Shown one piece after another: positions 1 through 47,874 of a stretch of 64,000 nt of DNA (the stretch's first letter is position 1; the number at the start of each line of letters is the position of its first letter). This DNA is from Cyanidioschyzon merolae (Eukaryota). Location of the stretch: NCBI GenBank assembly GCA_000091205.1, contig AP006488.2; one strand, 5' to 3'. Made by a program: the position numbers and the translations under genes. The notes beneath the pieces are model-generated. The model saw nothing but the letters and a program-made list of their open reading frames with translations. It made no database searches and was not told the origin of the DNA.

Positions 1-2358
1 ACCTCTACACGGATTCACCGACAGGAATCCGCATCTCATTCGTTGTAGGTGTTGCCTAAGGTGGCCCGCCGACATGTTAAAATCTCCCATAATTATCATC
101 GGTTCCTGATTCCGTGTGCGGCGTTTCAATCGCTGGATGTTGGAGGCCAACTCTTTGAGTGCCTGTTGGCGCATCTCTCCGGCGTGTGGTATATAAATGG
201 AGCCCACAAGCCAAGGTGCAGGCTGACCTGGAATTGTAACACTCACAAAGACCATCCATGGAGACGGGTTGCCGACCGCATAGCAAGTGAGGCGTCGATC
301 GACAGTGAGCGCCACACCACGTGTGCGTAACGAAGTTGGCTTCTCCGTAGGGTCTACGTATGTTGGTTCAAAGGTGTTGTCGCCTGGGGTATGCAGACGA
401 TAATACGTCTTTGTGTTCTCTGAGTGTAGTGTCTCCTGCAATGCTAGGATATGGACGTCTCAGCGTTCCAGGAAGTACCTTACGTCATCTAGTATCGAGG
501 CTGTCCCACAAATATTCCATGATGCGGAACCTATCGAGTCGTAGCGCATAAGGGAATAGGAATAGCGCTGCGGTACTCGAGAGATACGTTGTCGATTGAG
601 ATGCACCCTCCACGGCGTGTGAGAACGCACATGCCACCATTGCCTCCTGCATTCCAGTCGTTCAGTGAGTGTCTGCCGCAGCGCTAGCGTAGAATCAGAT
701 GTACATTAGTCAAAGTCGATTCGAATGCGACCTTTATCTTGCCGGACGTGTGAAGCTACCTTCAACCACTGGGGATACGCTATGAACCACCCTGTCAGCG
801 GCTTCGTATCCGCTCCCCAAATACATAGGCGGGCAAGTCGCTTGTTCCAGCTTCTACCGCGAACATACTGCCAGCTGTCTTCCGAAGTATCCGCCGAGAT
901 TGTTTCCAAAGTTGAGGTAGGTACCCAAGGTAGGAGGTAAAACTGAGCCCGATTTCGAGGATGGATCTAGGATTCGCGCCGGAACCCGCAGCGTTGTTTC
1001 GAGAGCAGCGGATAACTGCTCAGCATTCTCGTCAACTTTTTCTGCTGCTGCTGCCTCCGCCCTTCCGTTCCTTGCGGTCAAGGTTCCTGTTGTGGGCTTC
1101 CTTCCTCGTCGCCCGAGCACCCCGTGTTTACCCACTTTCAGAGCTTCTCCGGAAAAACTAGACCTCTTAGGCGGGCGTGGTGTGTGGGTCTTTAAGATAG
1201 TTGTTGTTTATTAAATAGTTTGCGACTAGTTTGTTTTTTTCGTCTCCTATCAATGCGGCAGATGCCGAGATCATTCTACGGGAAAAAATCCGAAGCGGCT
1301 ATTCAGTCGTTTTATGGTCTACCGCGGGTTCGCCTCGCCGTTTCGTGTGCGGAAACAGACCAGCAGCGGCATCACTCGTGTGCGCCTGCTTGGTATCGCT
1401 CCGAACGGCTTCAAAGCGTCGACTAGAAAAGTCGCGCATGCGTCTGGTAGCGCGTCTGGCATGCTAGTCCAGTGCCCACAAACGATGATCGTTTCCCTGC
1501 ACGCTGTCCGAGCATTGGACGCGATGGCTTCAATACCGCCTGACTCCAGCCATCCTTTCTTGATCGGCGGAACGTTTACACTGACCAGAGATACATGCCA
1601 CTGTGCAACTGGATATCTGCATCCGGGAAAGCGTCCGTGATAACTCGCGCTACGTCAAAGTTCCACGACGCGTACTTATGCTCGGAGGGTGTGGTCTATG
1701 CATAGGTTCCGCAGCACACCGAGTCTGCTGTGAGCGCTCGCCAAGACGCCTGTAGCGCCGGCGCTGATGCAGCACACTGACAGAAAAGCTTTGCAAGAAC
1801 GTTGAGCGTGTCGGCTCGAGGCGCCGTTCATCGATCGCAGGGTCGTGTCTCGTCGTCCGTGGGTGCTCGCCCAGTCTGCGTATGCAGACCTGCCTTCGCG
1901 GCACGACGGGTTTGAGAAACCCCGCGATGACGAAGAATCCAAGAGGCCGAGTCTCAACTTTGCTCGTTATCCACCAGTGAGGTGGTGTACGAATCGCTGG
2001 ACTCGCGTGCGCATCTAGTTCGTGGAACCATTCGCCTAGAACGTTGCACACAACGACTGGCCCAGAGATCCAGAGTAATTCCAGCGGATTCACTCCAGAG
2101 CGATTCTTTCTCGCACAAGAACGGGCGTCTAGAATCCGATTCCGCGGATGTGCAACTGCTGCTTGTCATCAGAAAAGAGATCAGGATCCTTCACAGATGC
2201 ACCCCGTGCGCCAGCTCTACCAGCATCATATTCATCTTTTGCTTGTGAATCGAGGCTACCACTCCCGATCGAGATGCATCAGCGGATACGAGCAGGAAAC
2301 TGCCCCAAGGCGTACATCGTTGCAAGTGAACGCTGCCCATACGAGTGAGGCCATAGCG

Positions 2359-2859
2359 CTAACCGGAGAAGTAGCGCTTTGCGAGATTTTTAGCCACTTC
2401 GTGGAACCGCTTGCTCGTAATCGGTGCATCCTCTTCTTGGAATGGGTTGCACACCACATGAGGCACATAGGCCTCGTACACGGCGTGCAGAAACGCCCGT
2501 ACGTTCCGTGACGCATCGTCGCTAGCCCCATGCACTAATACGAAGCGCGTGGCTGCGTTCGGCGTGAGCTGAACCGATGCAGACCAGTCACGGAATCGGA
2601 AGATATGCTTCAAACTTCGGGCCGAGGTTAACCAATATTTCTCCTCGATATGGTCCAGAGCGCTGTAGGCAACGAACTGCAGGAGAACCTGGATGCTCGG
2701 TATGAAATGATGGGGCTCGAAGTCTCCACGCTCTGCCGGACTCGAGAGCTCTGAGCTCGTTCTCCAGTCCAGCTCGGAGAGCGATGCCGGATACAAGAGA
2801 TCGTAGAGAACACGGTCATCTCGTCCGACGATCACAAAATAATAGAGCCGCTCGCTCAT
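2359..2859 (-). CDS. TRAPPC2: TRAPP complex subunit 2 (sedlin/Trs20-like)
   Basis: 166-aa ORF. The N-terminus MSERLYYFVIVGRDDRVLYD matches the sedlin start MSGSFYFVIVGHHDNPVF. VAYSALDHIEEKYWLTS and the C-terminal CNPFQEEDAPITSKRFHEVAKNLAKRY align to conserved sedlin blocks, and the size is right. Confidence 0.85.
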   Translation of the reverse strand: MSERLYYFVIVGRDDRVLYDLLYPASLSELDWRTSSELSSPAERGDFEPHHFIPSIQVLLQFVAYSALDHIEEKYWLTSARSLKHIFRFRDWSASVQLTPNAATRFVLVHGASDDASRNVRAFLHAVYEAYVPHVVCNPFQEEDAPITSKRFHEVAKNLAKRYFSG

Positions 2860-3288
2860 GGTACGACGTTATCGATCTTCCCCGCCTGCCGCGGTTGCCT
2901 CTAAAACCAAGATGATGCCGGGTCCGCAACACCGCCAAAAGACGCGGCAGTTCCCCAAAACCGGGATCAATCAGCGCTCGGGGAGTAGCGCCCCGCCGAA
3001 AGCACCGAACCCTGCTCTAGGTTCAAGAGCAAATCGCAAACAACCCGTCTACGTCTTTTCAAACGTTTGCCGAACCAGGGCAACGAAAGATACGTCAAGT
3101 GCTGATCAGGCTCCAACGACGGTCGTCGTAACAGCAACGATAGCAGTCGTAATGATATCAGCAGCAGGAACAGTAACAATAGTAGTAGCCTGAACCTGTA
3201 CCCAGTGCCACTAGTGCCAGTCAACGGAGCCAGGACAGCTGAACTGCACTTTCCCAAATTCAGGTGCCCTGCTTCATACCCTGCCTTT

Positions 3289-3572
3289 GAAATAAGACAC
3301 AAACTCAGCTCTAAACCCTGAAACAGAAATAACAGCAGTTTTACTGAACGTTCCCACAGCTCTTGTTTCCTGACAAGTTGAGGCTGCTGCTAGGCGTCAC
3401 ACCTCCGAATTGTACAGGCACGTGTGCGCTGAAACAAGACACAAACTCAGCTCTAAACCCTGAAACACAAATAACAGCAGTTTTACTGAACGTTCCCACA
3501 GCTCTTGTTTCCTGACAAGTTGAGGCTGCTGGTAGGCGTCACACCTCCGAATTGTACAGGCACGTGTGCGCT
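3289..3572. repeat. Tandem duplication, 2 copies of a 142-bp unit (3 mismatches)
   Basis: Direct reading: unit gaaa(t/c)aagacacaaactcagctctaaaccctgaaaca(g/c)aaataacagcagttttactgaacgttcccacagctcttgtttcctgacaagttgaggctgctg(c/g)taggcgtcacacctccgaattgtacaggcacgtgtgcgct occurs at 3289-3430 and 3431-3572. Confidence 0.9.
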
Positions 3573-4629
3573 CTTAAGAGAAACGCCGCTGCAGGGCGTC
3601 TGGGCAAACAGCACAGCGGCTCTGGAGGGAGCGACGCTGTTGCGACAACGAGTTGAGGTTTGTTTCGAGCGAGAGTTTGCTCCTATGGTCCAAGATACAG
3701 CTTGGGTAGCTTGGGGTTGCAGGCCAACTTGGTGTACGCGGACGGTCTCAAGCGGGCAAGGCCATAGTCGAGACGCTGGGTGCTGCAGGTACGCCGGCAA
3801 CCGCCAGCAGCGGTGGCACCCAAAGCTGCCAGCACGCGGTTTTCCTCTGGTTGAAGGTAAACGGCTCTGGTGCCGCAAGCTTGGGGCTTTGCGCGGGCGC
3901 TTTCGAGCAACAGCAGACCCACCAAGCGATGATAAAGACGGCGCTGAGGAGTCGTCGTCGGACAAGCACGAGGAGGACGCTCAGCAGCCGCCACCTGGCG
4001 AGCGCCCGTTGCACCAGATTCCTGGCACTTCTTTGCCGTTAGAGGAACTTCAGAAACGCATACAACAGATGAAGCAAACTAGGGCGAGCGCTGATAGCCC
4101 CGAGGACGCCGCCAGAGACCAGACCACCCGTGCAGGTAACAGCGAGCGCTCTGTATTCGAAGTCGAAGCGACTGTTGTCGAGGGATCGCAAACGCCCTAT
4201 GACGCTTCGAAAGAGGTCTGCGTGCTTGTGTTTCGCTCGTCACCTCGTGGTGACGGGATCTACAGTCTCCGGCTGGGCGACGAAGACATTATTTTGGCCT
4301 TCGAGCGGGACGTGGAGGCCATACGCTACGCGCGTTTACTAGCGGCGCAGGAGTTTCCCGAGCCGCACGTCGAAAAACTGCAGATAGGTGAGGTCTATGC
4401 GTTCTGCGAACAAGCCGGCCTGCGTATGGGACTGGTTCCATCCGGCATGATGGTGATCCCTCCAGAGGACAACATGCCCGGCTATGAGCGGTACTTCCGC
4501 GACGCAAAGGATCAGGGGCCTCCAGATCGCGAATACGTGGGAGAGCTCACTGAACGTCAACTGAATGAGCTGAAAAATCGCCTTGGACGACTTGTGGACG
4601 GCGATTCAGGGCCAAGCAGCCTCGACTAG
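3505..4629 (+). CDS. Hypothetical protein with a conserved C-terminal domain; 5' extent uncertain, alternative start at 4069
   Basis: 374-aa ORF whose first ATG lies inside the tandem repeat. The C-terminal ~180 aa (VCVLVFRSSPRGDGIYSLRLGDEDIILAFERDVEAIRYARLLAAQEF...) looks like a globular conserved domain, possibly a plant/cyanobacterial DUF-type. The N-terminal part is low complexity and overlaps antisense ORFs. Confidence 0.5.
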   Translation: MFPDKLRLLVGVTPPNCTGTCALLRETPLQGVWANSTAALEGATLLRQRVEVCFEREFAPMVQDTAWVAWGCRPTWCTRTVSSGQGHSRDAGCCRYAGNRQQRWHPKLPARGFPLVEGKRLWCRKLGALRGRFRATADPPSDDKDGAEESSSDKHEEDAQQPPPGERPLHQIPGTSLPLEELQKRIQQMKQTRASADSPEDAARDQTTRAGNSERSVFEVEATVVEGSQTPYDASKEVCVLVFRSSPRGDGIYSLRLGDEDIILAFERDVEAIRYARLLAAQEFPEPHVEKLQIGEVYAFCEQAGLRMGLVPSGMMVIPPEDNMPGYERYFRDAKDQGPPDREYVGELTERQLNELKNRLGRLVDGDSGPSSLD

Positions 4630-5480
4630 GGTAGCGATCCGACACGAGCGTGCCGTTCGAGTCGGTCGGAGCCGCTCGCGCTCTGGTACGAATGGCGGCA
4701 CATGCATCATGACACGCTACCTTATGGAGTACTTGGGAACGAATGGATTGCTCACGATGCAAATCAAGGTTACGGAGATGGGTAGGGTTGTTTGGATTTC
4801 GGGTGCCTGCTCTACGCTGGTACATAAGCACAAAGCGTTTATCACTGTGGAACGCGGTGATCAGCGTAACCTCCGGTGATTGCTCACGATTACCGGAGCC
4901 GATAGTGATAATGATGATGGTGGTGATGATTTCAGCCGAATACGGTGAGACTAGCAGTCCGTGCTTGGTTACGTGAACGGTGTGCAGACGCCTACTCTGG
5001 CGACCACGCGCGTAGTGAACCAGTTCGCAGCACTTTTTCCGCGAACAGTGAACGTGCTCAAGCGAGCGTCTATGGATGGCCGCTGATGATGCTGTTGTTT
5101 TTGTATTTGCTACGACTACGACTACTACTGCTGCTGCTGCTGCTGCAATATGTTGTTGTAGGGATCAATTGCTAAAAGACCGATCGACGGGGGATGCTGA
5201 TGCTGGCGTCCATTCAACGAAAAGGTATGCGTTTCTGGATGTTCCAGATGCTTATCCCTTTCGATAAAGAATCCTCGATAGCTTCGATACCGTGCGTGAT
5301 GAGTCCTACACCAGTGAATCCCAATGCATGCCGAGAGTGCGAGGTTGGCATGCTCCTGACAGACACATCATCAAAGAAAAAGTCCATTGGCGTCATCGCT
5401 GGCCCTTATTTCACATCCGAGTTTCCGCCATACCTTTTTGCGGAAGGTGAAAACGCTTCGCGGGATACACGCTAACGCCT

Positions 5481-6428
5481 CTAAGATTTCTCGGGCGATC
5501 GCGGGTTGCTTGGAGCTGCACTTTTCGACACCAGCTCTACAACTTGATCGGACATTTTCCTCTGCTCGATTGCGGGCGCAGACTGTTCGGCTGACAGAGC
5601 GCCAACGCTTCCGTCAGCGAAAAAGGTGGTACCCTGCCCTGCTCTTCGAAGCAGGGGTAAAACGCGTAATGCAGTACCTGCCGGACATGGCTCGCCGATG
5701 CTCACTGCGGGTAAACTCTTCGTGGTCGTTCTCCCATGAGCCAATGATGCCAGCGCTTTGGCAGCGGTAGCCTGCGCAAGAGAATCCAACCGAGACTGGT
5801 CAATGGAACGGCTTTTCGGCTCGGGGTAGTCATACATGATGTGCACCGTCCGTGGGATATCCACCGCTGAGGCGCTGGTCCGCCATCGCGTGTGACTCGC
5901 TGTTCCATCCGGGTAGCCGGGTTCGCCTCCAGGTCGCAGTTTTCGTGCCAGAAGTTCCTCCTTGCGCGGACGGCCACGTTTTCGACGAGGTAGCTGTGAC
6001 GCCACAGCCGGCAAAGCATCTCTACCCGTTCGACTCGAGCGATACATCATGTCTGTCACAGCGGATTCTCCGTTTGCGTTCGTGTTCTCCCCGAGCTCTT
6101 TCGAAGCCCCACCTGACGCATTGGATGAAGAAAACTCCGTCTCCTGTTCCGACGCCAACGCTTTACTCGGGGCGTCACTTGCGATTCGGTTGCTTGCGCA
6201 GTCCTGGATATCTGCAGACTGATGCGGCGGCGGTCGCTTCGTACACAAAGTCGGTCTCTCGGCGGGCACAAATGGCATCTGTGTTTCTCGCGCATCGTAT
6301 TTAGCGTCTGTCAACGGGGGTACATGGACCGCTTCGTCTGCTCCTTCGCCAAAGACTGGGCTGTCTGCGTCTGCAGAATCTGGGTCCCTCGAGTCCCGGA
6401 CGTTCTGCGCTCCCTGCAACTCGCCCAT
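5481..6428 (-). CDS. AT-hook motif-containing low-complexity nuclear protein (hypothetical)
   Basis: 315-aa ORF containing the AT-hook core PRRKRGRPRKEE. The ORF is Ser/Ala/Pro-rich with no other recognisable domain. Confidence 0.45.
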   Translation of the reverse strand: MGELQGAQNVRDSRDPDSADADSPVFGEGADEAVHVPPLTDAKYDARETQMPFVPAERPTLCTKRPPPHQSADIQDCASNRIASDAPSKALASEQETEFSSSNASGGASKELGENTNANGESAVTDMMYRSSRTGRDALPAVASQLPRRKRGRPRKEELLARKLRPGGEPGYPDGTASHTRWRTSASAVDIPRTVHIMYDYPEPKSRSIDQSRLDSLAQATAAKALASLAHGRTTTKSLPAVSIGEPCPAGTALRVLPLLRRAGQGTTFFADGSVGALSAEQSAPAIEQRKMSDQVVELVSKSAAPSNPRSPEKS

Positions 6429-8297: not shown

Positions 8298-10043
8298 TTA
8301 CGCAGTGTCCAACCAGGGCGAGTCCAGGGCGGCGACCCCGGCAGCAACTCCACCGTCATCCTGCCGTGCTAGCTTAGTCCGTAGGAGATGCCCAACTGCC
8401 TGATTCAAAGTCTCTATCACACCGATGGATCCAGGCGACCCGGCATTCTCAGTGCTCCCGAAAAATATCCCGAAAATACCGAGCTCGGAAACACAGTCGC
8501 TCTGTACTGGTGTGTGTCCGTTTCGGAGGATAACATTCGGAGATATACCTGGGTGAATTCTATCCATGAGTACGTAAGCGCAAAGTGGGTGGTCTGGGTC
8601 CTGTCGATGTGCCAACATGTCGGGAGCATTCCACGTGCGTTCAATGAATGTTTTCATCTCTGCTCCATAGAGATTATGACCGCCACCTTCACGTTGTGGC
8701 TTGAGAACATAGTTTTCCGGCTGATCCAGCACGCGCTGCACCAGCGCAGCACGCGTACTTGGATCATCGAACGCATACATCCCTACGAAAGTCTCACGCA
8801 GCGCCTCGGCTTTGGGATGCGATGGACGAATCGTTGACGCTGCCGCATGCCCATGCGTCATGCGCTCCGACCCGCGCGTATCGTCCAGATACCGCTCTAG
8901 GACACCAGGTTCGCCCAGAATCTGTTGCATGCGCTTCGTTCCGACCAACTGATACGAGGCGTTTGGGCACTCTACCGCATTGGAGCGCGCAATCATCGCT
9001 CGAGCTTGCCACTCGCGATCGCTTGCATAGTCCTGCGGCACGTAACCGGCGCGATAGTAAACAACCGAGATGAACGCCTGCTCCGTTTCCGCGTTTGAGG
9101 TGCTGCGAAGCTGCAACGTCGGACGTGATCCTTCTGCTCCGCCGACGAGTTGTCCGTTCTGAGCAATCTCGGTAAGCGTTGCGCGCCGCACCCGAATATT
9201 GTGCTCCTTCCACAACGTCAGTTCGATCCACTTCTGATCGTAGATATTGCGCTCCTTCGGTTGGACCACGAAGAGAATCACCGTGCTTCCAACGGGTGAC
9301 GAATAGCGCTCGTGCTGGGCGCGCCACCAGCGGTGCGCATGGGCAAGTGCCTCCGCAATACCCTCGAGCGCTCCGCTCTCGGGCATGTTGTTTTCGCACT
9401 GCCCCCGTCGCCATGAAGCAAGCTGCGCCATTGCCCCGTCGAACTGACCGGATCCATCCGAATGTGAACCGTGTCGGAGTTCGCTGGCGAGTCCGAGAAT
9501 ATCCGCGCGGTGCAGGACGTGTGTATGGAGTGCCCGTAGACGGCTGCCGAGTGCTCCAAAGGAGCTCGCAATGGTATTGATTTCCACCAGCTGCAACCGG
9601 CCGTTTGCAGTTACAAAGTAATCCGCACGCGTAACGCTCAAAGCCGGAACATCCGCTTTCAAGGGCTGCTGTCTGACAAGGTCACATAATCGAGCGGTGA
9701 AATCATCTTGAGAAGCAGTTGAGTGCAAGCTCTGGAGCAGAAAAGGAGTATCTCGGGCGAGCCCGTCGATGCAACGGTGCAAGGTTGCCACCAGGCTCCG
9801 GGCTTGGTGGTAGCAGGCGCGCGGAATGACCGTTGGGAAAAGCGTCATGGGCACCGGCACCGCCGTCCAGGTTTGAACTTGATTGCATTCAGTACCGGAC
9901 GACGTTTCTAGGGCCATAACCAAGCCATAGAGCACTGCCGCACACTGGGCGTATTCGGCGAGCTCATGAACGTCGGCTGGTGACGGCACACGCACCAGAA
10001 AGGGTAGCTTCAGCTCAACGGCCGACGACGACGACGACGACAT
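8298..10043 (-). CDS. GSS: Glutathione synthetase, eukaryotic type (ATP-grasp)
   Basis: Hallmark blocks: QDDFTARLCDL, QLVEINTIASSFGALGSRL, ILFVVQPKERNIYDQKWIE, YVLKPQREGGGHNLYGAEM, SELGIFGIF, HLLRTKLARQDDGGVAAGVAALDSPW. All are near-identical to human GSS motifs. The start is taken at the internal Met (MSSSSSSAVELK) because the upstream 54 codons show no GSS similarity. Confidence 0.9.
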   Translation of the reverse strand: MSSSSSSAVELKLPFLVRVPSPADVHELAEYAQCAAVLYGLVMALETSSGTECNQVQTWTAVPVPMTLFPTVIPRACYHQARSLVATLHRCIDGLARDTPFLLQSLHSTASQDDFTARLCDLVRQQPLKADVPALSVTRADYFVTANGRLQLVEINTIASSFGALGSRLRALHTHVLHRADILGLASELRHGSHSDGSGQFDGAMAQLASWRRGQCENNMPESGALEGIAEALAHAHRWWRAQHERYSSPVGSTVILFVVQPKERNIYDQKWIELTLWKEHNIRVRRATLTEIAQNGQLVGGAEGSRPTLQLRSTSNAETEQAFISVVYYRAGYVPQDYASDREWQARAMIARSNAVECPNASYQLVGTKRMQQILGEPGVLERYLDDTRGSERMTHGHAAASTIRPSHPKAEALRETFVGMYAFDDPSTRAALVQRVLDQPENYVLKPQREGGGHNLYGAEMKTFIERTWNAPDMLAHRQDPDHPLCAYVLMDRIHPGISPNVILRNGHTPVQSDCVSELGIFGIFFGSTENAGSPGSIGVIETLNQAVGHLLRTKLARQDDGGVAAGVAALDSPWLDTA

Positions 10044-12964: not shown

Positions 12965-14040
12965 GACGGGAGAAACGGTGAGACGCTTTTCTCCTCCAAA
13001 GTGTGCCCAGCCTTCAGTGGCACTTGCGTCCGCACTTCTTGATTGAGGATCCTAGCGCACGATGTACTGTAAAAGTCACCAAAAGATAAAATGATGTTCG
13101 TATAAAAGTTCCTTGCGTCCAGTATGAATACGGAAAAGCCGGGTGAAACAGTCCTGTGCCACGATTCGAAGAGAAAACGGGACAATTGCGGATTTTACGA
13201 ACGGCTCGCACGGACGGTAAGGCCCATGCGCCGAGAAAGCGCCGCGAGATCTCTCGCCACCACCAGCCCTGAAACGGATCGGAACGGCCGTGCTCAAGGC
13301 CTCTGGATAGATTTGACCAGGAAGATTTATTTTTATACTACATAGGAAGGTCTCGGGTAGAGACGCTTCCAGTTGGCTTTTTCTGTTTGCAATGTACGGG
13401 CCTCGACGAAGCCAGTCCACAGCCGATTCGCAGATGCCTCCGTGTTTCAGAGAAGTCAGAACATTGCAGCTTCTTATATCTGAGCAGCTTGACACTCAGC
13501 GCAACTTGTCAGTCGTCATCCGTTTCGGGCGGCTGCGCAGAACCATGAGGCGGCAAGCGCATTCGACGGCGCGGCACACGCATGCGACACCCCAGCGTGC
13601 ATCCGTGCACGACAAACGCAACGCCCCCAAGTATGACCTTCCACACTGGATCACTGGGAACTTAGAGGCATTCTGGAGGCAGCGGCCGTCTTTCCGCTGG
13701 TCACCAGCAGCATCCTCAGCACCTGTGTACCCGGATCAACGCAGGGCCAGTGCAAGGTTGCCGATCCTTCGAAAAGACGCTGGCGTACCGCCAGCGCACA
13801 GAGTGTAACCCGTACGAACAAACGCGCGCGCGTGTGCTGCGGCGGCTCGCGGCAAATGCGCCCGCGATTTTGAAACGCCGATCGGTGTGTGCGCGTCGAC
13901 TGCGCAAGCGCCGTTTCTCGTGGGCGAAAAAACCGCCAGTAGCGCTGGTTTTCTGTGAGTCGCCTAAGCGGTACTTGAGGACTGTCCAAACGCAACATCA
14001 GTGATGTATTCATGCACTTGCAGTCGAGTACGATGGGCAA

Positions 14041-14679
14041 GTGATGACTCCGGTGCGACCTCTGAGCGTGAAGACGTCTTTACGCGAGCCAGCGGGCTTT
14101 CGGCTACCGTTGACTCTAGATGAAGGCCGCACGCTTTTCGAAAAGCGTTCGGCGACGATGAGCGCCTCACGACCGAACACTTGCATCAACTTAGATACGC
14201 AGTGTAGATCCATTCTACGCGATAACAATCACCAAGCGATATCCTCGAGTGAAGCGACGCTCGCAAAGCGCGTGGCGACACTGAATGCGCTCATCGAAGC
14301 CATCGAGTACAGCAAGGCGATTTACGTGCACTACGACTACAGTGCCGCAGCTCGTGCTGGCGGTGCGATCGATTTGTTGCGCGTGAAGCAGGCAGTGGTT
14401 AAGGCTGCCGGTGCACTCGGTCTGCGTCGCTCCGTTGTGCAGACGTTGCAAAGCTGCTCACCAGAGACGCTGACCAACGAGTGGCTTCTGACGGTGGTGA
14501 TAGACGGCTGGTATCGACCGCCGTCGCCGTTACCGCGACCCGAGGAGGCATCGGGGAAATCTCTATATCCAGGTTCGGAAGCTGCAGAGCCGACTGTCGA
14601 GACGCAAACGGTGCGCAAGCCGCGCGTATCGCAGTCTATCGAGCGAACACGCGGTTTCTGTTGTTGTCGCTGCATGTAG
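14041..14679 (+). CDS. Hypothetical protein
   Basis: 212-aa ORF in a gap between flanking genes with no recognisable domain. The actual start may be an internal Met (MSASRPN at ~14158). Confidence 0.3.
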   Translation: MMTPVRPLSVKTSLREPAGFRLPLTLDEGRTLFEKRSATMSASRPNTCINLDTQCRSILRDNNHQAISSSEATLAKRVATLNALIEAIEYSKAIYVHYDYSAAARAGGAIDLLRVKQAVVKAAGALGLRRSVVQTLQSCSPETLTNEWLLTVVIDGWYRPPSPLPRPEEASGKSLYPGSEAAEPTVETQTVRKPRVSQSIERTRGFCCCRCM

Positions 14680-37228: not shown

Positions 37229-39187
37229 ATGGCGAACAGGGAGAGCAGTGATGGACCTTTTGTAGCATATACGTTGGCGTTGACGCAGAGTGTGCGTTCT
37301 AGTTTGGTGCTCGTGCGTGACGCCGCAGCGGAGCTCGCCGTACGCATCGGTTGCCTCTTGTGTGAACCCAGTGACGGTGCCAGTGGAAACGCTAACTCGG
37401 GCCTCAGTCCGCTGAAGAAGCATTCGCGCAACTATGCGACGGCTCAGCGGGTACAGCGTGAGGCGGAGTCGCTGAAGCTGACCTGCGACGCTATTTTCCC
37501 CGAGGTGGAGCAGCTGTTGGCTGTTGTGGCGGGGGAACCATCTTTGTCGCTTTCTGACGCAGCTTTGAGCGTGGATGCGAAGGACTTTGCGAACTGCTCG
37601 GTGCTGCACGCCACAGGGAACGTCGAAGCTGCTGGATGCGGATGTTGCGGGGCACGGCGCCGTTCCCCGCTTGTGGGACGTGGCTGGGGCGGTGCCTATG
37701 GTTGCCCCGGCAACGGCTACGAGTCACTGCTGTGCATCCTCTGGCGTTTGCTGCAGCGTCTTGAGGTCGAGACAGCACTCACCAACCAGGAAGCGGCAGA
37801 GCGTCGTGCGCGTCAGCGTTCGTTGCGACGTTCGCCGCGGCTGGTGGCGAACAGCGGCTACGGGCTCTCGGGCGGTGCTGATGAGCGTCCGAGCCAAGCG
37901 ACAGCGCCCAGCGTGAACTGGCGAGAGCTAGAAAGGCGCTGGCTTGCACCGCATTCGAGTGCTAACCAGCTGACGCCGTTGGGTCGCCTAACTGGTCATC
38001 ATTTGCAACTGAAGCAGTTCTATGCGATGATCCACCTAGCCTGTCGTTGTGTGCGACAGAGCGATGTTGGGCGAACGCTATTCGTCCCGATGAGTGCCGA
38101 GTTCGATCATCGGGTTTGGGCGCCCGTTGTGAAGCTGGACAGTTTTCAGGGAGTTCATTTCGGTTTTCAGTACAGTCGTGAAATGCGGACGGTGCTGCGT
38201 ATTGTGCAAGTTATTCGCAGTGCAGTGCGACGTGCAGTAGCCAGCGAATACTTTCGAAGAAGCGCTTTCGCTCGCAAACTAGCATTCTTTTCGTGGGGAT
38301 GGTTCTATATTCATATGGCGCTGCTGGAGAACTATGGGTACAGCACGAGCATGGCCCAACAGATTGTAGAGAAGCTGGCAAGCGCGTTCGGAGCGAGCCT
38401 GTCGACAGTGGAGCGACCAGCAGGTCGTCGCGAGGCTGCAGATACCCCTGAAGTGGCAGCGCGCTCACCTGTCGTGAGCCTTGACGAGGCACGCATGTTC
38501 TTCAATCTTTCAGAGGATCCTTTGTTCTTGGGATTCGCACTTATTCGGGACAAAGACGTTGCGCTCGACCAGTTCTTCGAAATCGACGATGCAGCGGATG
38601 CATTGAAGCGCGCGCCACACAAGAACGCGCAGCACCGAGTGCAGCGGAGCGTCGACCACTCGACCTCATTGTCGCGCGGAGATGCGGAAATGTCGCCAGA
38701 AGCAGCTGCAAGTGGTACGCGATTAAAACTGCCCGCTGCGCTGCATGGACCGTTGAAAGCACGCCTTCTATCGTCGGTTGTCCGTTGCGTGCAGATCAAG
38801 TCGCAACGAACGACGGCGCCGAATACCGCGGAGCATAGCGCCTCTGGTACCGCGACATGTGCAAGCGCTGCCGAAAGCTTTTCCCCAGCACCGATGACGG
38901 ATTGCTGGCAACGTCCACACGAAATGGACGAAACGATTGACGCTTCCGCGGATGCGACTGCAGCCGCGATGAGCCCAGATCGCTTCTGCCAGCACGCCGA
39001 TGATCCATGGAGAGCATCGAACCTAACTGTAAGCGCAACCGAACCGGTTGCTGCAACTGATGCGTCACCACGTCGCGCTGGTGCGGCGGCAACTGGACCA
39101 GATAGCGAGTCAGGTTCGTCGGTTTGGGCAGCAGATAGCGCAGCTTTGCAGCGGGATACCGCTGACGCCGATGGAGCTCTCGGAAAT

Positions 39188-39233
<46 letters not shown>

Positions 39234-40498
39234 CCAATGGAATCGACCGCAGCCCGCGGGCGCTTTCCACCACGCCTGCCGAGGCGGACGCTGGGGATCC
39301 TCCACAGTCTAGCTCGCGAGCGGCACGCAGCCTCCGACGTGAGCGCTCGGGTTCACTCTTGGCATCCGCGATAAGCTCATCCATGCGAAGCATAGGCGCT
39401 CGGATCGATTCGCTATTGCGGCATCAAGCCGACGAGGGGCTAGCGCGCTCCCTCATTGTCTTCTTCCATGGTGGCGGCTTTATTGGCCAGAGTTCGCTGA
39501 CCCACACCAGCCTCCTGAAACAGATCGCTCATGACATTCCAGATGCAATGGTCGTATCCATGGACTATAGATTAGCGCCAGAATATCCCTACCCCACAGC
39601 GGTGAACGAGTGCTTCCATTTCTATATCTGGGCTCTCGAGAACGCACATCTTTTGGGTACGCACGCTGAACGGATCGTTGTTGCAGGCGACAGCGCTGGC
39701 GGGAATCTGGCGGTGGTGCTCACCATTCTGCTTATCCAGCACGGTCTGCGACTACCTGATGGACTGGTGCTGGCATACCCGGCGTTGAATTTGACATTGC
39801 AGTGGTCACCGTCGCGACTTTTGTCGGCTTTCGATCCACTGCTCTCGATCGATCTGTTGGAGTTAATTCTCCAGTCGTATGTGCCGGCCGATGTGGATGC
39901 GAGTAGGGATCCGTATCTGAGCCCATGCATCGCAGCTTCAGATACGCTGCTGGAGGCGTTCCCACCCGTCTACATGGTCTGCGGTGCATACGATCCACTG
40001 CTGGATGATACGGTCGAGTTTGCGCATCGGCTGCGGCTCGTGAAGCGCGACACCCATTGCGATCGAGATGCCGTTCGGTTGCGAGTCTACGAGGGCATGC
40101 CGCACGGTTTTCTCAGTATGAGCAGCGCAATCCATGAGGCATCTGCTGCCGTTAGCCAAGTGACCCTGTGGATGAGCGAACTACTGCAGGTGTCGTGGGC
40201 CGGTGACCACGAGCGAAGCTGCCGCTCGGCACCGTCGTCACCGCGACTGCCGCTGCCAGCGCCGTCTGGCGCAGACGCGAGCCTATCCACATCGACGGAT
40301 TCGCTGCAGCACACCGAACGCTCCGGAGTCGATCTGCAGGCCTCGATGGACACCACGAAAGCCGCTGCTGCTCCTGCTACTACTGCCGCCGCACTCCGTC
40401 AAGCTATGCGTGAACTCAGCGTGGCATTTTCCGTATCTGAATCAAGTGACAGCGACTCGGATGAGGATCGTGCGGAACAAACACCGCGTTTCGCCTGA
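37229..40498 (+). CDS. Hormone-sensitive lipase family protein (HSL N-terminal-like region + alpha/beta hydrolase fold-3 with HGGG and GDSAGG motifs)
   Basis: The block LIVFFHGGGFIGQSSLTHTSLLKQIAHDIPDAMVVSMDYRLAPEYPYPTAVNECFHFYIWALENAHLLGTHAERIVVAGDSAGGNLAVV...PDGLVLAYPALNL aligns position by position to the human LIPE catalytic core (HGGGF...IDYSLAPEAPFPRALEEC...GERICLAGDSAGGNL...PDGIMAAYPA). There is a long N-terminal helical region and an internal poly-Ala tract. Confidence 0.9.
39188..39231. repeat. (CAG)n/(GCA)n trinucleotide repeat inside the lipase CDS, encoding poly-Ala
   Basis: gcagcagcag... x15 read directly. It is in frame as GNAAAAAAAAAAAAAAAASNG. Confidence 0.9.
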
Positions 40499-41433: not shown

Positions 41434-41438
41434 AAAAA
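41434..41438 (-). terminator. Pol III T5 terminator directly after tRNA position 60 (end of the permuted 5' half)
   Basis: Minus-strand ...TTCGATACGATTTTTGGGG. The T5 run starts 2 nt after the T-loop. Confidence 0.5.
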
Positions 41439-41441
41439 TCG

Positions 41442-41522
41442 TATCGAACCCGCGTCCTCCCGCTTGCAAAGCGGGCGCTATAACCCCTAAGCCACGCCCC
41501 CGTGAAATGTGGAGGCGGCGGG
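41442..41522 (-). tRNA. Permuted tRNA-Ala(UGC) gene: 3' half (positions 61-73) lies upstream of 5' half (positions 1-60) with an 8-nt linker
   Basis: Minus-strand reading: tRNA 3' half CCCGC-CGCCTCC-A (pos 61-73), then linker CATTTCAC, then the 5' half (pos 1-60): GGGGGCG-TG-GCTT-AGGGGTTAT-AGC-G-CCCGC-TTTGCAA-GCGGG-AGGAC-GCGGG-TTCGATA. Acceptor stem pairs 1-72...7-66 all form, including the G3:U70 wobble that is the alanine identity element. The anticodon is UGC, the T-stem is GCGGG/CCCGC, the T-loop is canonical, and GG18-19 is present. Confidence 0.7.
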
Positions 41523-41557
41523 AAATTCTCGAATGATCGGAAGTAAGAGTGGAAAAT

Positions 41558-41568
41558 TTATATATAAA
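41558..41568 (-). promoter_or_regulatory. TATA-like element (minus-strand TTTATATATAAA) ~36-46 nt upstream of the permuted tRNA-Ala transcription unit
   Basis: Plus-strand tttatatataaag read directly. Upstream TATA elements are typical of plant and algal Pol III tRNA promoters. Confidence 0.4.
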
Positions 41569-45618: not shown

Positions 45619-47874
45619 TCAAAACTGACTGATATCTCGCCCGAAAATAGCCGCTTTGATCCAGTCAAACGTAATCAAGATCCGATTGCGCATACTGACC
45701 TGCTTCACTGCATAGACAGAGCGCCATATCAGATAGGTCAGCGTTCCGCTCAGTTTCACCGAGGTGTCGCCCATTTCTATCTGGGCCATTGCACGCTCGC
45801 GACCGATGTAGGCAAGAAGACCGAACGAAAGGAACTGGAACGGCTTCGCAAAGCGAGCCCGATCGATCCAGGTGCGCGTGTACTCGGTGCGTTCCGGGAT
45901 GTCGCAATCAAGACAATACTCGCGGTTCAAGAGACGGGCGAGATACGCGCCCTGCTGGCCGGCGACCTGGGCAGTTGCAGGCAAGGGTTCGTGCAGGTTC
46001 GTTGCACAGTCGCCGGCGGCGAACACGCCTTCGGCACCAATCACGCGGAGCCAATCATCGACAACAAGTTGGCGCTTCTTAAAGGTCGTCTGGGCGGGAA
46101 TCGACTCGATGAGATCCGTCACGAGTTTCTGAGGACCGACCCCCGCGGCCCACACACACATGCCATAGGGTATCACTGCACCATCCTGCAGATAAATCTC
46201 GGTCTCGGTGATGCGAACGACTCGACTGCCAGTCCGAACGTTGATCTCCGCGTCGCGCAGGTTCTGCAAAGCCCGATCTTGCAGGGACTTGTCGAACTGT
46301 GTCAAGATACTTTGCCCGGATTGCAACAAAGTGACCTGTACATATTTCAGCAGCTTCTTGTAATACTTCACAGCATCCTCTACGAGAAAATCATGCAGTT
46401 CACCAGCGAATTCGACGCCGGTTGGACCACCGCCAACCACTACGAAGTGCAGTAAGCGACTGCGCTCCTCGTCGGAGGTCTCGGGTAGATTCGCCTCTTC
46501 GAAGATGCGCACGACCTCAGACCGGATTTTCCGCGCGTCTGGGATTTCTTTCAAAAAGAAACAGTTCTCCTTGGCACCCGGGGTGTTAAACGTGTTCACC
46601 GCGGAACCTACGCCGACCACGCAGTAGGTGTACGGCACTTCGAACTCGCGTATGCCGATGATTTCATCAGTATTGCTTTTCGTCGAAAATCGCGGTTGCA
46701 ATGCGTGGACATCTTGGCTTGTTTCCGCCAGAGACGGTGCACCGACGTCGCTTTCAGAGCCCACGGAGAGCGCGCCCCGACGCCGGACTTTGGCCCGACA
46801 TTTCACCACCCGCCTTTGGATATCGACCCCGACCGCCTCTGCTTCATAGTAGATGATGAAAGGATTCGCCCGGAGTATCGGTTCGCAGCACGAACGAAAC
46901 TCCACAATGCCCAGTGCTGACGACGGCAGCATAGGTTGGAAGAGGAAGTAGTTCCGGGGCGAGATGACGATTACCTCGTACTTATCGATGTCGATGATTT
47001 TCACCATCGCGTGACCAACCCAGCCGGTTCCCAAGATCACCAAGCGCGGCTTGGGCCGACCGCTCGAACTCAGAAACTCACCCTGCCAGAAAAACTGACG
47101 CCTAAGATGCAGCAGAGCGTCCTCAAAGGTATCGAGGGTGCGGTCCCAGACCAGACCAAGGTAGGTGCGCCGGCGCCCTCGCGTCTCGACCGGAGGCGGG
47201 GGAGATGGCGGCGCGGGACTCTCTTTTCCATCACCAGGTTTAAGAGGTTGTGTATCCGGCTGCACTGCTGGCTTCTCGTCGGTTTTCACCAAACGTTCGC
47301 CTTCACACAGACGTAGCCCGCGGAGCTTGTGCGTGCGCTGCACCACGCGAGCGCTCCTCTGGGGCCGGAAGTTAGGCGTGTTTGGTTTTCTCGAAACAAG
47401 CGGTACCTGTCTCTGTCGACCAAGTGCATGAACGGAACTGACAAAACCCGTAATCAGGTATCCCTCATCCATATCTGAACACGATGCGCCATACAACAAC
47501 GGCATGCAAACTGCAAGCTGCAACAACAACAGACGCGCGCTTGTGCATGCACGATGCCCGCATCGCGATCGCGTCATCCATCGATCGATCGATCGATGGA
47601 TGCACGGATCGCACTGGGCGCGGCGGCGCTTTGGTGTCGATGCGAGGCCTTCGGCGGCGCTACGCTCTATATGCCGAATCGACGCTCTGGATCTGGAGAG
47701 CATCCACGGTCTGCGAATGCGACGCCCCGCGGATGCATGAACGATATCCTGGTCGCTGGGGGAGCGATCTTTGCTGCTTTTGTTTTTCTGGAGAAACCGT
47801 GCGATATCGTTGCGGAATGTGTTGATCTCAGTCATTGGATTGACTTCAAAAGAACAGCGACGAGGTTTACACAT
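45619..47874 (-). CDS. Type II NAD(P)H dehydrogenase (NDH-2, alternative NADH:quinone oxidoreductase); true start probably well downstream of 47874
   Basis: First dinucleotide fold PRLVILGTGWVGH, second fold LLHFVVVGGGPTGVEFAGELHDF, quinone-site GVFAAGDCA, and a C-terminal membrane-anchor helix. The ~270-codon N-terminal extension contains a (ATCG)n palindromic microsatellite and the Pro-rich tract PAPPSPPPPVETRGRRR, so part of it is probably UTR or presequence. Confidence 0.85.
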   Translation of the reverse strand: MCKPRRCSFEVNPMTEINTFRNDIARFLQKNKSSKDRSPSDQDIVHASAGRRIRRPWMLSRSRASIRHIERSAAEGLASTPKRRRAQCDPCIHRSIDRWMTRSRCGHRACTSARLLLLQLAVCMPLLYGASCSDMDEGYLITGFVSSVHALGRQRQVPLVSRKPNTPNFRPQRSARVVQRTHKLRGLRLCEGERLVKTDEKPAVQPDTQPLKPGDGKESPAPPSPPPPVETRGRRRTYLGLVWDRTLDTFEDALLHLRRQFFWQGEFLSSSGRPKPRLVILGTGWVGHAMVKIIDIDKYEVIVISPRNYFLFQPMLPSSALGIVEFRSCCEPILRANPFIIYYEAEAVGVDIQRRVVKCRAKVRRRGALSVGSESDVGAPSLAETSQDVHALQPRFSTKSNTDEIIGIREFEVPYTYCVVGVGSAVNTFNTPGAKENCFFLKEIPDARKIRSEVVRIFEEANLPETSDEERSRLLHFVVVGGGPTGVEFAGELHDFLVEDAVKYYKKLLKYVQVTLLQSGQSILTQFDKSLQDRALQNLRDAEINVRTGSRVVRITETEIYLQDGAVIPYGMCVWAAGVGPQKLVTDLIESIPAQTTFKKRQLVVDDWLRVIGAEGVFAAGDCATNLHEPLPATAQVAGQQGAYLARLLNREYCLDCDIPERTEYTRTWIDRARFAKPFQFLSFGLLAYIGRERAMAQIEMGDTSVKLSGTLTYLIWRSVYAVKQVSMRNRILITFDWIKAAIFGRDISQF

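Follow-up and report, generated by a model that had tools for sequence, protein, structure and literature searches.

A circularly permuted tRNA-Ala(UGC) gene in Cyanidioschyzon merolae and its counterparts in Cyanidiococcus and Cyanidium

The minus strand of a 64,000-nucleotide stretch of Cyanidioschyzon merolae DNA (the whole of this stretch is called the window below) carries the 3' end of a tRNA-Ala(UGC) ahead of the rest of the molecule, which raises the questions of whether such a locus encodes a functional tRNA and, if so, at which position its two pieces are joined. With a probability of about 95%, the locus is the circularly permuted, single-copy nuclear tRNA-Ala(UGC) gene of C. merolae 10D and corresponds to the published type IV gene. 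This reading draws on what we observed of the architecture, organism identity, cloverleaf competence, conservation, covariation and pattern of constraint; identity with the published Ala(TGC) gene rests on the organism, the anticodon, the junction loop, the spacer length and the intron status. The gene is already known, and its biology has been in print since 2007; the original prediction had treated it as a possible new case, in error, as it figures in the published 10D list (Ala(TGC), type IV). It was reportedly first described, as a type IV (59/60) permuted gene, by Soma et al. in Science in 2007.

According to the 2014 review by Soma, 11 of the 43 nuclear tRNA genes of C. merolae 10D are permuted, and the Ala(TGC) entry is given as type IV (59/60), with an 8-bp intervening sequence and no intron (PMC3978253, Table 1 of that work). 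The 43 genes cover 42 anticodons and Gly(CCC) alone is duplicated (PMC3978253), so that the present locus is the only Ala(UGC) gene in 10D; the count of other tRNA-Ala(UGC) genes, which had been proposed as a check, is therefore zero. A TATA-like sequence at most 50 bp upstream and a T-stretch downstream accompany most C. merolae tRNA genes, and the genome is devoid of the A/B-box-binding subunits of TFIIIC (PMC3978253). Northern and aminoacylation evidence covers the permuted tRNAs of C. merolae collectively, and RT-PCR with sequencing has revealed both a linear precursor in permuted order and a circular intermediate in which the intervening sequence is still present (PMC3978253). Substrings of the present tRNA, used in a search of literature text, retrieved unrelated papers only.

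On the minus strand the gene reads, in order, TATA box, leader, tRNA positions 60-73, 8-nt spacer, tRNA positions 1-59, 4-nt trailer and T5 (Table 1). The interval predicted for the gene (41434-41568) was correct, and so were the predicted order of 3' piece, 8-nt linker and 5' piece and the TATA element upstream of them. The downstream piece holds the acceptor 5' strand, the D arm, the anticodon arm (UGC), the variable loop, the T-stem 5' strand and T-loop positions U54-U59. The T-run had been placed directly after this piece, which is wrong, as 3-4 trailer bases, (A)CGA, intervene. The TATA-like box is presumed to be a TFIIIC-independent RNA polymerase III promoter. With one TATA box, one T-run and a spacer that contains neither promoter nor terminator, the layout is that of a single transcription unit; its pieces share a strand and are separated by 8 nt, which is not the arrangement of a split (trans-spliced) gene.

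Table 1. Positions of the permuted gene, of its orthologues and of neighbouring genes (window coordinates, except for orthologues, which are numbered on their own contigs)
Feature	Position	Strand	Remarks
TATA-like box TATATATAAA	41557-41566	-	starts 44 nt upstream of C61
5' leader	41524-41556	-	33 nt, ending TTCGAGAATT; proposed to be lost in processing
Junction-proximal leader TTCGAGAATT	41533-41524	-	invariant within the species; would form the leader side of the relaxed bulge-helix-bulge
Upstream tRNA piece	41510-41523	-	U60, CCCGC (61-65), CGCCTCC (66-72, with U70), A73
Position 60 (T)	41523	-	within upstream piece
Positions 61-73	41522-41510	-	within upstream piece; CCCGC, T-stem 3' strand; CGCCTCC, acceptor 3' strand; A73, discriminator
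Spacer CATTTCAC	41502-41509	-	8 nt, bridging A73 and G1
Downstream tRNA piece	41443-41501	-	positions 1-59, GGGGGCG to GGTTCGAT, 59 nt
3' trailer ACGA	41442-41439	-	CGA able to pair with leader UCG
RNA polymerase III terminator TTTTT	41438-41434	-	T5, after trailer
Whole unit, C. merolae 10D	41566-41434	-	spacer, written between A73 and G1, CAUUUCAC, 8 nt; TATA TATATATA, 44 nt upstream of C61
Orthologue, L006 (Cyanidiococcus-like)	8763-8861	-	spacer CUCGACCU, 8 nt; TATA TATATATA, 44 nt upstream of C61
Orthologue, L001 (Cyanidiococcus)	14149-14242	-	spacer GUUCCAAC, 8 nt; TATA TATATATA, 42 nt upstream of C61
Orthologue, L005 (Cyanidium)	about 13118-13300	-	spacer 75 nt, G+C-rich; TATA TTTATATT, about 40 nt upstream
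BAM79425.1 (CYME_CMF040C)	5484-6428	-	full-length, identical to 10D protein
BAM79428.1	10982-12964	-	full-length, identical to 10D protein
BAM79429.1	14709-18062	-	full-length, identical to 10D protein
Esterase/lipase ORF	37229-40498	+	1089 aa; adjoins tRNA
GTP cyclohydrolase I (GCH1) BAM79436.1	42958-43845	-	encoded exactly
BAM79438.1	49110-50489	-	full-length, identical to 10D protein

When the upstream 13-14 nt were moved behind the downstream piece, ARAGORN called a tRNA-Ala(tgc) in the rotated sequence. All stems closed on joining of the halves, as had been predicted, the acceptor stem with 7/7 pairs (G3.U70 included) and the T-stem and anticodon stem with 5/5 each, and the cloverleaf consensus was present at U8, G18G19, U33, G15/C48 and UUC (54-56). 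The G3:U70 wobble pair is a determinant of recognition by AlaRS; this pair and A73, the identity elements of tRNA-Ala, were found here and were invariant in all lineages compared. The cloverleaf lies 3.6 kcal/mol above the minimum free energy (MFE) of the unmodified sequence, and unconstrained MFE folds of the primary transcript, of the Cyanidium transcript (z = +1.1) and of the mature sequence did not give a cloverleaf.

In the unrotated window, ARAGORN reported no tRNA, whether introns were allowed or not, and nothing in the whole window reached the Rfam gathering threshold; at a permissive threshold, the Rfam tRNA model (RF00005) scored 23.7 bits at the locus, compared with a gathering score of 29. 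Standard finders thus miss this gene, as anticipated, and the adjacent conventional tRNA that could have supplied the 3' half, looked for with the same programs, was absent from the window, as was any other tRNA. The permuted gene can nevertheless be recovered from raw sequence alone, although ARAGORN and Rfam both miss it. The arrangement exceeds what chance would give: a 12-mer that closes both the T-stem and the acceptor stem (G.U allowed) has a probability of about 7.7e-5 per position and of about 0.008 within 100 nt upstream, and of the 18 12-mers of this kind on the two strands of the window, only that at 41522 has no non-Watson-Crick pair other than G3.U70.

Several other calls were discarded. 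Relaxed ARAGORN settings (-ps90) produced 25 calls, with introns of tens of nt up to 2.5 kb, which are noise, and the weak snoRNA-like Rfam matches beside the locus (E = 3.5 and 6.3) are at chance level. In L006, a Cyanidiococcus-like metagenome contig, ARAGORN called a conventional tRNA-Ala(tgc) at 8759-8831 (minus strand); this call is an artefact, in which G2-G5 are paired with the poly-T terminator and a mismatched T-stem is forced. False-positive calls of this type could hide the permuted architecture in automated annotation.

The window was compared with L001 (Cyanidiococcus yangmingshanensis), L006, L005 (Cyanidium caldarium) and conspecific metagenome contigs. The slot order SMP/C2, esterase, tRNA, GTP cyclohydrolase I, NDH2, HAD was kept in four other sequences, and the orthologues found in the same slot were all permuted alike. 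The tRNA locus was the only intergenic stretch that aligned to Cyanidiococcus, with 91% identity, flanking coding DNA being 68-79% identical. The downstream piece was identical in the window, in L006 and in the conspecific contigs. The 8-nt spacers of 10D, L006 and L001 were unrelated in sequence. Next to the junction, the leader motif CGAG(AA) was kept across genera (L006, L001 and L005), the distal leader being variable; the trailer CGA was kept in the window, L006 and L001, the Cyanidium trailer UCGUG pairs with its own leader, and a T-run follows in all four lineages.

In the rotated alignment, 20/20 stem pairs were standard in every lineage, compared with 47-63% when the partners were slid. 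Two-sided changes were observed at 12:23 (U:A to C:G) and at 5:68 (G:C to A:U), a pair whose two bases sit in separate pieces. This covariation, drawn from three distinct sequences and reached by 51 of 500 shuffles, would support selection and is suggestive rather than statistically strong. Within the species, the haplotype of L012-L014 differed from the window by eight substitutions in the distal leader, one in the TATA box and two in the spacer, and by none in the two tRNA pieces, in TTCGAGAATTT or in the trailer. The constrained elements are both tRNA pieces, the junction-side leader motif and the trailer; the sequence and length of the spacer and the distal leader are free.

That Cyanidiococcus yangmingshanensis and Cyanidium caldarium have this permuted gene at the same place in the gene order suggests that the permutation predates the split of these genera. 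We consider it slightly more probable than the contrary that the permuted Ala(UGC) gene is ancestral to at least Cyanidioschyzon, Cyanidiococcus and Cyanidium, in the same slot and with a spacer of 8 nt that was expanded to 75 nt in Cyanidium caldarium. No report of cross-genus conservation of the permuted gene was found in the searchable literature. If the arrangement is indeed ancestral, it would offer a natural comparative series for what the unusual splicing endonuclease of Cyanidiophyceae recognizes at a T-loop junction. A metagenome scan with a 30-nt query from the tRNA body returned the same C. merolae population only (L009 and L010), with no new diversity.

The original prediction had placed the junction at 60/61 and had counted this position among those known for permuted genes; the reported positions are 20/21, 37/38, 50/51, 59/60 and 15/16 (PMC3978253). 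The junction is better placed at 59/60, with U60 contributed by the upstream piece, because of the geometry of the bulge-helix-bulge motif, the published junction and the invariant T that precedes C61. In a bulge-helix-bulge, each strand provides four bases of the central helix and then a 3-nt bulge; cleavage falls between the second and third bases of the bulge, and the third directly adjoins the flanking helix. At the canonical site this corresponds to 36,37|intron and intron|38, with 39-43 next. For a 7-nt T-loop with 49-53:61-65 as its closing stem, the same geometry puts the cut at 59|60, and position 60, unpaired and next to C61, is the T at 41523. Among the four lineages, the base that follows U59 varies (A, C, A, A).

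A relaxed bulge-helix-bulge can be drawn at this junction, with a 3-bp outer helix between leader UCG and trailer CGA, a central helix in which leader AGAA faces U54 U55 C56 G57, with an A.G mismatch beside three pairs, and a 3-nt bulge on either strand, UU|U60 and A58 U59|A. With this A.G mismatch and only 3 bp in the outer helix, it does not amount to the strict hBHBh' motif, which is not obvious here; the relaxed drawing is a candidate for the motif expected at the junction. A leader-trailer helix is present in all four lineages, and the motif nucleotides are invariant within the species. The unconstrained fold favours another register, in which leader UCGAG pairs with T-loop UUCGA, with a 5-nt bulge and an outer helix GAUC:GAUU. 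This MFE register was rejected because its outer helix is not conserved, being disrupted in a conspecific haplotype and lacking in other genera; no covariation in the four lineages discriminates between the two registers.

Published work proposes that permuted transcripts are processed first by the splicing endonuclease and a ligase, then by RNase P and tRNase Z, with CCA addition (PMC3978253). The maturation pathway given here is this model for the permuted class fitted to the present sequence; transcription, circularization, the exact cut sites and aminoacylation are steps that we infer or take from the literature. One transcript would run from the leader through positions 60-73, the 8-nt spacer and positions 1-59 into the trailer, and would stop at T5. 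Leader and trailer would pair beside the opened T-loop and form the relaxed bulge-helix-bulge, both bulges of which would be cut by the tRNA splicing endonuclease, and ligation of U59 to U60 would produce an RNA circle. RNase P and tRNase Z would next act at the acceptor stem to remove the 8-nt spacer; CCA addition and recognition of G3:U70 by AlaRS would follow. The joined RNA would read ...GGUUCGAU followed by UCCCGCC with a 59/60 junction, and GAUA-CCCGC with a 60/61 junction.

Joining of the same permuted gene at 60/61 would give a T-loop UUCGAUA, with A60 belonging to the downstream piece and C61 as the first base of the upstream one. The sequence permits both junctions, either rotated version being a valid tRNA, and in the MFE register U59, A and C form a 3-nt bulge, from which a cut after A60 would follow. 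This position nevertheless appears unlikely: it departs from the published junction and from the rule that the 3' exon of a bulge-helix-bulge begins with one unpaired base before the helix (60 before 61-65, as 38 before 39-43), it would assign the variable base after U59 to the tRNA in place of the invariant T before C61, and the MFE register that speaks for it needs the outer helix GAUC:GAUU, which is broken in conspecific haplotypes and missing in other genera. Less probable still is a pathway in which RNase P and tRNase Z act first, at the spacer, to free the pieces as separate halves that are joined in trans without a circular intermediate. The shortness of the leader-trailer helix would be compatible with joining in trans, but RNase P and tRNase Z recognize the acceptor/T-arm domain, which becomes complete only once the T-loop is sealed, and the 8-nt spacer has no promoter or terminator of its own. 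Joining in trans is disfavoured because circular intermediates that retain the intervening sequence have been detected for algal permuted tRNAs (PMC3978253).

The locus might also be a tRNA pseudogene, rearranged or in decay, or two fragments brought together by chance, and yield no functional product. The silence of standard finders is in keeping with a pseudogene, and about 10 to 18 12-mers per 128 kb could close both stems by chance when G.U is allowed. However, the gene occupies the same slot in three genera while the flanking intergenic DNA is unalignable, the compensatory change at 5:68 spans the two pieces, all 20 pairs are kept, no within-species substitution falls in either piece while the spacer and distal leader vary, and a genome with a minimal tRNA set has only this gene for Ala(UGC). 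Because of the conservation evidence and of the single-copy status, we regard a pseudogene or a chance arrangement as excluded, with almost no probability left to either, and the original claim that the locus is not a broken pseudogene holds. In conclusion, these observations favour a functional permuted tRNA-Ala(UGC) gene joined at 59/60.

Five ORFs of the window encode 10D proteins exactly (Table 1), which identifies the strain. The gene lies between an esterase/lipase gene and GTP cyclohydrolase I, and from CMF locus tags we infer that it is on chromosome 6 of 10D. The esterase/lipase ORF matches metagenome proteins at 98% identity and Cyanidiococcus and Cyanidium proteins at 57-60% identity; it had no exact record in the protein collection, where its 90% cluster consists of metagenome proteins only. 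The 10D annotation may use another gene model for this ORF, or lack the gene; the flanking 10D genes are on record. Across 32763-53812 of the window, contigs 99.1-99.6% identical to it were found in JGI, ENA and Logan environmental assemblies (L002, L003, L007, L008, L011, L013 and L014), and the environmental contigs show two or more haplotypes at the tRNA locus. The recurrence of such near-identical contigs indicates that close relatives of 10D are widespread in sequenced samples. In one contig (L012, positions 1-6308, JGI 3300050748), the alignment to the window ends at 47504: beyond NDH2 this contig carries PsbP, a 926-aa ORF and an actin gene, and the window carries HAD phosphatase and cation-efflux genes instead. 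The divergence of L012 beyond 47504 reflects either a strain-level rearrangement or a chimeric assembly.

Compared with known systems, the locus is closest to the published type IV Ala(UGC) gene of C. merolae 10D: organism, anticodon, T-loop junction, 8-bp intervening sequence, lack of an intron, TATA-like box and T-run are all shared, and no difference was detectable at the level of these attributes. Other type IV genes, C. merolae Arg(CCU) and Lys(UUU) and Thermofilum pendens iMet and Tyr, have the same 59/60 T-loop junction with the 3' piece upstream, and are likewise proposed to be processed via a bulge-helix-bulge. Their spacers are 23, 38, 7 and 1 bp long, compared with 8 here; all but Lys(UUU) contain an intron, and the archaeal ones encode CCA. 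The type II genes of Ostreococcus, Micromonas and the Bigelowiella nucleomorph have the same order of 3' half, spacer and 5' half and the circular-intermediate pathway that is also proposed here. Their junction is the canonical 37/38, with an hBH motif that suits the standard eukaryotic endonuclease, whereas the T-loop cut proposed here would require the broader specificity that has been proposed for the C. merolae enzyme. The split tRNAs of Nanoarchaeum equitans and Caldivirga are joined, as is proposed here, at a bulge-helix-bulge by splicing endonuclease and ligase; their halves are separate genes at distant loci, whereas in the present gene a single unit holds both pieces, with 8 nt between them.
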